NCBI RefSeq assembly: GCF_013122565.1
Contig: NZ_CP053258.1
DNA length: 64,000 nucleotides
Source: Escherichia coli
Lineage (GTDB): Bacteria > Pseudomonadota > Gammaproteobacteria > Enterobacterales > Enterobacteriaceae
Reading direction: 5' to 3' (one strand)
The notes under the pieces were generated by a model, which made no database searches, had not been told where the DNA came from, and saw nothing but the letters and a program-made list of their open reading frames with translations. Of this stretch, positions 3,545 to 55,538 are shown piece by piece. How positions within the stretch are numbered: the first letter of the stretch is position 1; each line of letters begins with the position of its first letter. The translations under genes and the position numbers were made by a program.

Positions 3545-3649
3545 AGTAAATGCCCCAAAAAAAGAGGACGGTTTAAATAAACTCTGGAATGAATAATTAA
3601 CGTTATTTACCTGTTATGGGAAAAGTAAAATCAGCTCATAACATACGCT

Positions 3650-3860
3650 GACAGGTGTGGCACATTTGTGCCTGGGAAGAGGGTGAAAATCCCTCGCAGC
3701 CCCCGCTGCTGTAATGCTGACAAACCCGAAAATGCCACTGATCGCGAGATTGGGAAGGTCGGGAGAGGATGACGCTAAGCCAGAAGACCAGTCTGTCAGT
3801 CAATACCAACAACTTCGGTGGGAAGTGGGTTGCCCGGAAGCGTTCGGTAGAGTACAGGCG
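3650..3860 (+). promoter_or_regulatory. Cobalamin (B12) riboswitch, cob-operon leader type
   Basis: Conserved elements read directly: cctgggaaga, ggtgaaaatccc, gcagcccccgctgctgtaa, aatgccactg, and a B12-box-like aagccagaagaccagtc at about 3776-3795; boundaries approximate. Confidence 0.7.
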
Positions 3861-17465: not shown

Positions 17466-17541
17466 TGGCTCCTCTGACTGGACTCGAACCAGTGACATAC
17501 GGATTAACAGTCCGCCGTTCTACCGACTGAACTACAGAGGA
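17466..17541 (-). tRNA. asnV: tRNA-Asn (GUU)
   Basis: 76-nt reverse complement of the E. coli tRNA-Asn sequence; position between ldtA side and nac. Confidence 0.95.
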
Positions 17542-19873: not shown

Positions 19874-19949
19874 TGGCTCCTCTGACTGGACTCGAACCAG
19901 TGACATACGGATTAACAGTCCGCCGTTCTACCGACTGAACTACAGAGGA
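19874..19949 (-). tRNA. asnU: tRNA-Asn (GUU)
   Basis: Identical 76-nt tRNA-Asn sequence (reverse complement). Confidence 0.95.
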
Positions 19950-21697: not shown

Positions 21698-21773
21698 TCC
21701 TCTGTAGTTCAGTCGGTAGAACGGCGGACTGTTAATCCGTATGTCACTGGTTCGAGTCCAGTCAGAGGAGCCA
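21698..21773 (+). tRNA. asnW: tRNA-Asn (GUU)
   Basis: TCCTCTGTAGTTCAGTCGGTAGAACGGCGGACTGTTAATCCG...GAGCCA read directly on the plus strand. Confidence 0.95.
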
Positions 21774-27783: not shown

Positions 27784-35766
<7,983 letters not shown>

Positions 35767-36079
35767 GCTTACCTTCCCTGAACGAGCTAACATAAATGCG
35801 CCCTTTCTAGCACAGCGAAAAAATGTAAATCCTGATAGCAATATGATTGAAAATTAATAACTTTTCGTTAGGCAGTTTTGGGTGTGAGTTGCAAGAGGGG
35901 AGACTACTGAATTACTCAAGTTTTATAATCGAGGGGAAAATGGTGATGGCGTCCATAGCAAAACGCCCTCAACCATTAAGGTCGAAGGCGCTTAAGATGT
36001 CAAAAACCCGCTATCCGTTAAAAAGCAATGCTCAACTAAGGTCAGTGACATTGCGCTAAAAAAGCGAATTTTTAGAATT

Positions 36080-36155
36080 TGGCTCCTCTGACTGGACTCG
36101 AACCAGTGACATACGGATTAACAGTCCGCCGTTCTACCGACTGAACTACAGAGGA
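36080..36155 (-). tRNA. asnT: tRNA-Asn (GUU)
   Basis: Identical 76-nt tRNA-Asn (reverse complement); upstream flank atcgtgtgaacggggcgcatatta is identical to that of asnV. Confidence 0.95.
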
Positions 36156-37146: not shown

Positions 37147-37236
37147 GGAGAGATGCCGGAGCGGCTGAACGGACCGGTCTCGAAAACCGGAGTAGGGGCA
37201 ACTCTACCGGGGGTTCAAATCCCCCTCTCTCCGCCA
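37147..37236 (+). tRNA. serU: tRNA-Ser (CGA)
   Basis: GGAGAGATGCCGGAGCGGCTGAACGGACCGGTCTCGAAAACCGG...TTCAAATCCCCCTCTCTCCGCCA read directly; 90 nt with a long variable arm. Confidence 0.9.
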
Positions 37237-44868: not shown

Positions 44869-45378
44869 AGTGTATTCCTTATTGTTGCTTAGTTAGGGTA
44901 GTCACTATATTTGCGACTGAGCTGGTCGCTATTTTTAACCAGGCTGGAAAATTGAGTCAATATATCGAAAGCGGTAGTCGGCGGGTGTAAGTATGTAATG
45001 ATGATGCTGCACTGGTGTTGAATATTATTCACGCCAAATTTTCCTTATTGAGCTACGTCGTCGCAAGTGGCCTCAATGATTTTAGACCATTATCAGAGGT
45101 ACGGGGCGGCGGGGAGAGATTTAGTGCTGTGGAATATTGTGGTGCTGATGAATATTTATATCCTGGATTGGCAGAGAAAAAGCTTATTTCATGCACTATT
45201 TTTGCAAATATTTCTATATGGGAGGCGGTTTTGTTGCAGATTAATTCATAAAGAAATGCATTTGGGTCTTGGCTTTAAGAGTAGCTGGTTGATGTTATTA
45301 TGCCAGGAGGGGCAGGGTAATGTGCCGTAACGATATGCTTTGGCAATTGCGTGCGCCGCAGATGGAAATGAAATGCCA

Positions 45379-45417
45379 ATAAAAAAGCCTGAGTTCGATG
45401 AGGGACGAACTCAGGCT
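45379..45417 (-). terminator. Rho-independent terminator of yedS
   Basis: 12-bp stem agcctgagttcg / cgaactcaggct, followed on the minus strand by a T-run. Confidence 0.65.
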
Positions 45418-45459: not shown

Positions 45460-46647
45460 TTAGAACTGGTAGACTAAGCCCACAGCAACGATATCATCGG
45501 TAGCGATGCCGTTTTCTTTGTAGAAGTCGTCGTCGTTGTCCAGCAGGTTGATTTTGTAATCAACATAGGTGGACATGTTTTTGTTGAAGTAGTAGGTCAT
45601 ACCAATATCAACATATTTAACCAGATCTTTGTTGGTGTAGTGATGATTACCCTGGCTGTCGAAGTTATCACTATTTACACCGCCTAAATCCTTACCTTTA
45701 GATTGCAGGTAAGCGATGGACGGGCGCAGGCCGAAGTCGAACTGATACTGAGCAACAACTTCAAAGTTTTGGGTTTTGTTAGCAATGGCATCAGCATCAC
45801 CGTAACCAGTCATGTTACGGGTTTCAGCATACATAGCTGCTAAGTAAACGTTATTAGCGTCGTATTTAGCACCAACGGTCCATGCTTCTGCTGTTTCACC
45901 GCCAGCAGTTGCATCGAAGCGATCTCCATAACGGGTGTTATGAGTATCTTTGTGAACCTGGTTATCGGTACGGTCAGAGTTAGAATAAGCAGCCCCCAGA
46001 CTTAAACCGAAGTCGAAGTCATAGGAAGTGGACATACCGAAGCCGTCACCGTTCTCTTTAGCTAACTTACGTCCATTACCGTTACCAGATCCTTCCTGAC
46101 CGAACGCTCCACTACCTTCATTATTACCCTGATATTGCAGAGCAAAGTTCAGGCCATCAACCTGACCGAAGAAGCCATTGTTACGGTAGGTTGCAACACC
46201 ATTGGTACGACCGTTCATGAAGTTGTCAGCACCAGCATAGGTATCGCCACCAAATTCTGGCAGCATATCGGTCCATGCTTCTACGTCATATACGACACCG
46301 TAGTTACGACCATAGTCGAAAGTACCATTCTGGCCAAAGCCTAAACCTGCAAATGCCAGACGCGTTGCGGTATTACCTTTGTCACTTTCAGGACCGTTTG
46401 CGCCAATGTTAAATTCCCACTGACCGTAACCAGTGAATTGGTCAGCGATCTGAGTTTCACCTTTGAAACCGATACGGGCATATGACATGTCGCCATCGCT
46501 GCCAGAATCATCAGAGAAGTAGTGCAGGCCCGCTACTTTTCCGTACAAATCCAGTTTATTACCATCTTTATTATAGACTTCAGCCGCATTTGCTGCGCCA
46601 GCAACTAATAACGCCGGGACCAGCATTGCCAGAACTTTTCTTTTCAT
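45460..46647 (-). CDS. yedS: Outer-membrane general porin (OmpC/OmpF/PhoE family), intact
   Basis: Start trimmed to [21 protein letters not shown] (395 aa); C-terminal VYQF; porin-like Gly/Tyr/Asp-rich composition. Confidence 0.8.
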
Positions 46648-46958
46648 TATGTATTCCCTTGTGATTATAATCTTCATGAATATATCAATAAGTGCCGTTA
46701 TCCAAAAAAAAGCACATTTGGATACTATTCTATGAAGTTCATTTTATTTTAAGAATTACATGTAACAAATGTATTTAAAAGATTTCAAAATGTTTCCAAT
46801 CTATTTAATATAATTCAGAATTATGAATTCTAAATATAAGCATTCATGAAAATTATAGCTGTATATCAATAATTTATGAGTTAACCGGAAAAATAGGTAT
46901 TGTCAATGATTGTTGCGCCAAACGGCAGGTGTGATCACGCGCACATTAATGAAGACAT

Positions 46959-47045
46959 AAAAAAAAGCCGGCATCATGCCGGCCCAAAAAATATAAACAA
47001 GACGATAAAAGGCTAATAACAGGGTTATCATGACATAGAAATCAA
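46959..47045 (-). ncRNA. Candidate small RNA ending at a strong intrinsic terminator (possibly RseX)
   Basis: Minus-strand terminator GCCGGCATGATGCCGGC followed by U8 at 46983 to 46959, with no CDS upstream; 5' end not determined; the RseX identification rests only on remembered map position. Confidence 0.3.
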
Positions 47046-47213
47046 AAAAGGTATAATTGTATTCAGTGCTAATATATTGTTTAGGTGAATTAATAAAACC
47101 ATTACCAAAGATATAAATAAATCTTTATTGCTGATTTTCCGGTAATTATTGCAGTTGCGCAAAATTTATCTATTTGTTCAAAAAATGATTGAGTCTTGAC
47201 TGGCTCATCCAAT

Positions 47214-55451: not shown

Positions 55452-55538
55452 AACACATCAGATTTCCTGGTGTAACGAATTTTTTAAGTGCTTCTTGCTT
55501 AAGCAAGTTTCATCCCGACCTCCTCAGGGTCGGGATTT
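55452..55538 (+). ncRNA. dsrA: DsrA small regulatory RNA
   Basis: AACACATCAGATTTCCTGGTGTAACGAATTTTTTAAGTGCTTCTTGCTTAAGCAAGTTTCATCCCGACC...CAGGGTCGGGATTT read directly, ending in an intrinsic terminator. Confidence 0.9.

Follow-up and report, generated by a model that had tools for sequence, protein, structure and literature searches.

The 64,000-nucleotide stretch of Escherichia coli DNA analysed here (hereafter, the window) carries an intact gene for a general porin, which is very likely an allele of yedS and the E. coli counterpart of ompS1, the quiescent porin gene of Salmonella. The gene lies on the minus strand, a point on which the initial annotation was silent, and consists of 1188 nt and 395 codons with no internal stop, from an ATG whose A is at position 46647 to a TAA at 45462-45460 (Table 1). 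The observation of an intact yedS holds, but is neither unusual nor new, since it agrees with what has been published on the pseudogene of K-12 and on functional alleles in clinical isolates.

Table 1. Position, strand and basis of the features described at the yedS locus (window coordinates).
Feature	Coordinates	Strand	Basis or remark
yedS coding sequence, 395-aa porin precursor	45460..46647, stop included	-	ORF, Pfam Porin_1, PDB matches, WP_171459248.1
Signal peptide coding region, 21 aa	46585..46647	-	Alignment to OmpC signal peptide; cleavage before AEVYNKDGN
Shine-Dalgarno-like AAGGGA	46655..46660	-	Direct reading; 8 nt between GGG and ATG; inside block 100% identical to K-12
yedS intrinsic terminator	45377..45417	-	Terminator scan and fold
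Conserved 5'UTR and promoter-proximal region	46648..46800	-	Identity to K-12 and other Escherichia
Candidate promoter, sigma-70-like hexamers TTGTTA-16-TAAAAT	46768..46741	-	Consensus match
Phased AAACA/TTACA repeats, OmpR-box-like	46796-46758	-	Resemblance
CRP-type palindrome TAATGTGCGCGTGATCACACC	46928..46948		Between rseX terminator and yedS
rseX small RNA gene	46960..47049	-	Rfam RF01401, 94.1 bits (gathering score 50); directly upstream of yedS, same strand
rseX terminator	46985..46965	-	Terminator scan

An unbroken porin gene in the yedS slot

The gene order around the porin is hprR-hprS-hchA-[porin]-rseX-drpB-yedJ-dcm-vsr, which is the arrangement of yedS in K-12. The gene thus takes the position of yedS, between hchA and rseX-drpB(yedR)-yedJ-dcm, and in K-12 rseX likewise lies immediately upstream of yedS (K-12 annotation; PMC7648144). 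Its sequence is continuous with that of the K-12 pseudogene (b4496), with which it shares the slot, the leader and 5'UTR, and the allele class. The two are 89.6% identical in nucleotides over the gene and its flanks, and their coding sequences differ by 123 substitutions and five indels. As stated in the initial annotation, K-12 carries this gene as a pseudogene: MG1655 annotates b4496 in this way, with the RefSeq flag "frameshifted; internal stop". Alignment placed the K-12 lesions at codon 162, where CAG has become TAG, and at nt 663, where 1 nt is deleted. Neither occurs in the window gene, which has the CAG and the extra T. The 1188 nt contain neither an internal frameshift nor a premature stop, and the full-length 395-aa OmpC/F-family porin with a signal peptide proposed at this place from the sequence was borne out by the unbroken reading frame and by a full match to the family profile.

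The program-made list of open reading frames extends the yedS frame to an in-frame ATG at 46677 (45460..46677, 405 aa). A Shine-Dalgarno sequence precedes the ATG at 46647 and the one at 46677 has no ribosome-binding site; RefSeq annotates the 1188-nt version in related genomes, with the start equivalent to 46647. The longer version, used in some database entries, places 10 residues ahead of the signal peptide and is likely a mis-annotation of the start site. WP_171459248.1 is the identical protein on record, from a single E. coli contig, and the exact Dcm protein of the window is recorded from the same contig. Among the 5,426 complete RefSeq genomes of E. coli, the best identity is 97.6% for the yedS coding sequence and 98.4% for the hprS-hchA flank, so the window appears to come from a lineage that they do not include. 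Among their alleles, that of PS10-3 comes nearest, its protein differing from the window YedS by 7 residues, mostly in loops.

By sequence, the protein has all the hallmarks of a general porin of the OmpC/OmpF family. Residues 27-395 match the Pfam profile Porin_1 (PF00267) over its entire length (positions 1-337 of 337; E 1.5e-141; 472 bits, cutoff 23.7). The N-terminus follows the plan of the OmpC signal peptide in an alignment with the OmpC, OmpF and OmpN precursors, with MKRK, a hydrophobic core and ANA|AE. The mature protein begins with the AE(V/I)YNKDGNK motif of the family, and the mature OmpC and OmpK36 chains in the PDB start at query residue 22. Of the 13 intact E. coli alleles under comparison, 12 share this signal peptide exactly and one carries V5D. 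All of the pore-lining residues K16, R42, R82, R132, D113 and E117 (OmpF numbering) are conserved, and correspond to K16, R37, R75, R126, D106 and E110 of mature YedS, in which the PEFGGD motif of loop L3 occupies positions 109-114. The C-terminus reads ...VGLVYQF, an ending with a terminal Phe that does not vary across the alignment.

Structural comparisons place YedS among the same proteins. The best match in the PDB is OmpK37 of Klebsiella pneumoniae (6v78; 493 bits, 64% identity, full length), followed over the full length by OmpK36 (~448 bits) and OmpC (419-437 bits), the OmpK36, Omp36 and OmpC variants together spanning 410-450 bits, and then by PhoE and OmpF. An AlphaFold model, computed from a shallow alignment of 20 sequences, has 16 strands and the L3 helix, with a moderate mean pLDDT of 65 and poorly modelled loops. 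Foldseek searches with this model retrieved OmpK37, OmpK36, OmpC and OmpF (E 1e-37 to 1e-43) at target-normalised TM-scores of 0.87-0.90, that of OmpK37, the closest solved structure, being 0.88. Mature YedS is longer than OmpC (374 residues vs 346), the surplus lying in the external loops L4, L5 and L7; compared with OmpK37, its L5 and L7 are longer by ~12 and ~10 residues.

The closest paralogue in E. coli is OmpN, 72% identical to YedS and with the same L3 and pore residues; its locus differs in that it adjoins micC and uspF. OmpN and OmpK37 are minor OmpC-type porins that are normally poorly expressed. YedS shares with OmpC, OmpF and PhoE the Pfam family, the 16-strand fold, the plan of the signal peptide, the PEFGGD loop and the C-terminal Phe, and differs from them in its locus, in the lack of a predicted pairing with MicF and in sequence (66%, 62% and 61% identity, respectively, to the K-12 proteins). 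A protein of this kind would be exported by Sec as the 395-aa precursor, cleaved after Ala21, and inserted by BAM as the 374-residue mature chain through its C-terminal ...VYQF signal. It would then form a trimeric 16-strand beta-barrel acting as a general diffusion pore, narrowed by L3, on which D106 and E110 are expected to face K16, R37, R75 and R126.

Allele classes at the slot

We compared the slot in 13 genomes of E. coli. The flanks, the 5'UTR and the signal peptide are ~97-100% identical among them, and the downstream terminator is near-identical. Divergence starts just past the signal peptide (at about 46590) and ends at the stop codon, and both boundaries are sharp. The mature proteins fall into at least four classes. 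Class A includes the window, K-12 and five others (87-98% identity to the window protein), class B includes UC4224 (72%), class C includes MRE162, NCTC9082 and the ST131 strain JJ1887 (about 61%), and class D includes ATCC 25922, ECSD228 and MS20653 (about 60%). The first two classes are of the OmpC/OmpN/OmpK37 type and the last two of the OmpF/OmpK35 type, and the identity between the two groups (55-62%) is comparable to the distances separating OmpC, OmpF and PhoE. Class C is nearest to OmpK35 (OmpF type, 491 bits) and has VEWGGD in L3 in place of PEFGGD. As a consequence, PGAP names the genes of classes A and B "ompC" but gives those of C and D no more than the name "porin". The window allele itself is a private variant, and its class also occurs in E. 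albertii, E. whittamii and cryptic Escherichia.

These patterns make it conceivable, as a tentative reading, that the yedS slot is a porin cassette subject to a long-maintained balanced polymorphism or to repeated gene conversion, and so far undescribed; we found no description of a class polymorphism at the slot among the open-access texts mentioning yedS that we consulted. If this reading were true, the "extra porin" of E. coli would differ in kind by lineage, with ST131 and ATCC 25922 unlike K-12 and the window, and the difference could matter for the entry of antibiotics and for phage or colicin receptors.

The distribution of the variation bears on what the protein does. It falls mainly in the external loops L1, L2 and L4-L8, the barrel strands and L3 being conserved, and this, together with the replacement of whole cassettes between strains, is what one would see if the main role of YedS were that of a variable surface receptor or antigen, involved in interactions with phages, colicins or the host, with the pore being incidental. 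A comparison with Salmonella points the same way: OmpS1 and OmpS2 are immunogenic porins whose mutants show attenuation in mice (PMC4264507). We nevertheless regard such a main role as unlikely. Neither the L3 motif nor any pore-lining residue departs from the family pattern in the window allele, an argument for selection on the channel itself. Variable loops are just as characteristic of true diffusion porins, OmpC among them, and a protein can be receptor and pore at once. A general diffusion pore remains the probable function of YedS.

Upstream region, expression and selection

The initial annotation gave the gene a strong terminator of its own, and folding agrees: the stem-loop (45417..45386, minus strand) lies 43 nt past the stop codon, has a perfectly paired stem of 12 bp and a loop of 8 nt, and is followed by the U-run in UUUUUUAUU. 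Its fold has an energy of -21.5 kcal/mol (z = -6.5), and 0 of 200 shuffled sequences fold as well. At the other end, the ~130-150 nt upstream of the ATG (from about 46777) are 100% identical to K-12. In E. albertii, E. whittamii and Escherichia sp. E1V33, identity is still 93-100% over this block but only 80-90% over the flanking genes. The block is thus conserved beyond its flanking genes, which indicates that the promoter and leader are constrained. The transcript would be monocistronic, probably starting ~90 nt upstream of the ATG and ending at the intrinsic terminator.

The repeats resembling OmpR boxes (Table 1) give at best 11-13 matches out of 20 to the boxes of ompC and ompF, no better than shuffled AT-rich sequence does; as references we used the C1-C3 and F1-F3 sites, confirmed in the DNA upstream of K-12 ompC and ompF. 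The palindrome TAATGTGCGCGTGATCACACC has a homologue in K-12, at position 2033766 (ggTGTGAtcaggcGCACAtta), from which it differs by one change in the spacer, and this K-12 site near yedS is listed among in vitro CRP footprints (PMC12871828).

We also predicted duplexes with two small RNAs. Nucleotides 1-33 of MicF pair with the yedS initiation region at -7.7 kcal/mol (z = +1.0), compared with -27.1 kcal/mol (z = -5.1) for the ompF control, so that the extended complementarity which marks a direct target of MicF is not predicted at the initiation region of yedS. Control of yedS by MicF has reportedly been described, in the abstract of a 2013 study by Warner; if this is right, the absence of a predicted seed pairing implies that the control is indirect or acts at another site. 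Duplex prediction with RseX likewise gave no pairing with yedS (z = 0.06; z = -2.6 for its known target, ompC).

The region upstream of yedS has a GC content of 21-35%. The neighbouring rseX is repressed by H-NS/StpA (PMC8313858). These proteins also silence OmpS1, the quiescent porin of Salmonella, which LeuO induces (PMC4264507). Considering this precedent together with the AT-rich upstream DNA and the repression of rseX, yedS most likely has a low basal expression and is induced conditionally. The AT-rich DNA and the OmpS1 precedent suggest that YedS is a quiescent porin, which may be largely silent in laboratory conditions, and silencing of the H-NS type acting on the upstream region would account for low expression in standard conditions. 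The porin transcripts lowered by induction of sigmaE include "yedS (ompS1)" (PMC2731931). In Salmonella, the attenuation of ompS1 mutants implies expression in vivo (PMC4264507).

The intact state is common. From the ranked list of all 5,426 complete E. coli genomes we took 22 at regular intervals, and by annotation 17 of them have an intact yedS (352-404 aa). The other five have pseudogenes. Besides K-12, these are two O157-type strains and BA92, all three disrupted by a frameshift, and CAVP819, where IS2 has inserted. A DNA-pattern search of the GTDB species representatives, with one genome per species, found 8 loci, all of them intact, in E. albertii, E. whittamii, two further Escherichia species, two species clusters labelled E. 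coli and two contigs of one metagenome-assembled genome (MAG) labelled Collinsella. In both surveys, then, intactness is the normal, wild-type state of yedS, not a peculiarity of this strain, and K-12 is the exception. The protein collection is also rich in full-length relatives of 395 aa; one of them occurs on 1000 contigs or more, and some bear the name "outer membrane protein yedS" or "outer membrane protein S1". The two contigs in the Collinsella bin are very probably contaminating E. coli DNA: one carries an allele 99% identical to the ST131-type and the other a 365-aa allele 73% identical to that of the window, two alleles in one sample.

The ratio dN/dS between yedS and its homologues in other Escherichia species is 0.04-0.15, over dS values of 0.2-0.5, and it is 0.04-0.07 relative to E1V33, E. 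whittamii and E. albertii. Within class A of E. coli, the values are 0.12-0.33. The low ratios between species show that yedS has been under long-term purifying selection. They speak against the idea that the frame is intact but the gene functionally dead, silenced for good or lately inactivated in its regulation, an incipient pseudogene like that of K-12 with no role in permeability. Such a state would fit the repeated decay of the locus, in which the five pseudogenes have independent lesions, the AT-rich upstream DNA and the quiescence of the Salmonella homologue in the laboratory (PMC4264507). Yet the block containing the 5'UTR and promoter-proximal region is conserved between species, most natural genomes keep the gene intact, and the surface loops are hypervariable, which points to exposure to selection by phages or immunity and, therefore, to expression in nature. 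We consider a dead gene quite improbable, and an intact gene expressed under particular conditions remains our preferred reading.

Antibiotic entry, naming and other features of the window

Functional YedS reportedly occurs in clinical isolates, where it is said to influence the susceptibility to carbapenems; the gene of these isolates is intact, as that of the window is. YedS and carbapenem resistance are the subject of Warner et al. 2013 (Antimicrob Agents Chemother 57:1935; cited in PMC8537846, PMC4048246 and PMC11267920). An intact yedS is a fourth or fifth general porin beside OmpC, OmpF, PhoE and OmpN. It would matter mainly once OmpC or OmpF is lost, or once silencing is relieved, and could then let small hydrophilic solutes, beta-lactams and carbapenems among them, enter by another way. 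In cells without OmpC and OmpF, a spare pore of this kind might decide the entry of carbapenems and cephalosporins, which is reportedly what the Warner study is about.

OmpS1 of Salmonella resembles YedS in belonging to the general porin family and in having an AT-rich upstream region. The two are equated by name, through the designation "yedS (ompS1)" (PMC2731931) and the database entries called "outer membrane protein S1". OmpS1 is repressed by H-NS/StpA and activated by LeuO and OmpR, and the resemblance of the yedS repeats to OmpR boxes is not significant.

The label given to such genes by automatic annotation requires a comment. NF007841, the "porin OmpC" subfamily, is the sole NCBIfam model that the window protein matches above its cutoff (545 vs 484 bits), and the protein scores below the cutoffs of the equivalogs for OmpF (449 vs 583) and PhoE (442 vs 599); PGAP labels homologous genes of related genomes "ompC: porin OmpC". 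That the window gene is ompC itself, the major osmoporin, is hardly credible and is refuted by position and identity, as the true K-12 ompC adjoins micF and rcsD at 2.31 Mb, the window gene sits between hchA and rseX-drpB, and its product is less similar to OmpC than to OmpN, without the near-identity of an orthologue. Nor does NF007841 discriminate between these proteins, since a genuine OmpN passes too, with 594 bits. It is a broad subfamily model, and the RefSeq/PGAP name derived from it results in genomes that carry two genes called ompC. The gene is effectively mislabelled by PGAP, and should be named yedS (ompS1-like) rather than ompC.

Over positions 47080-47140, just upstream of rseX toward drpB, identity to all 8 genomes of E. 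coli compared is 60-65%, against 80-100% in the flanking sequence to the left and right. By this comparison, the segment is a lineage-specific replacement on the promoter side of rseX. Elsewhere in the window, there is an open reading frame of 2685 aa (27784-35841), which we take to be yeeJ, and no large island is inserted, within the window, at the tRNA-Asn gene beside it. The tRNA genes of the window are four for tRNA-Asn (17466-17541, 19874-19949, 21698-21773 and 36080-36155) and one for tRNA-Ser(CGA) (37147-37236). Other RNA elements are a cobalamin riboswitch (3636-3810) and the sRNAs STnc230 (2486-2569) and DsrA (55452-55538).
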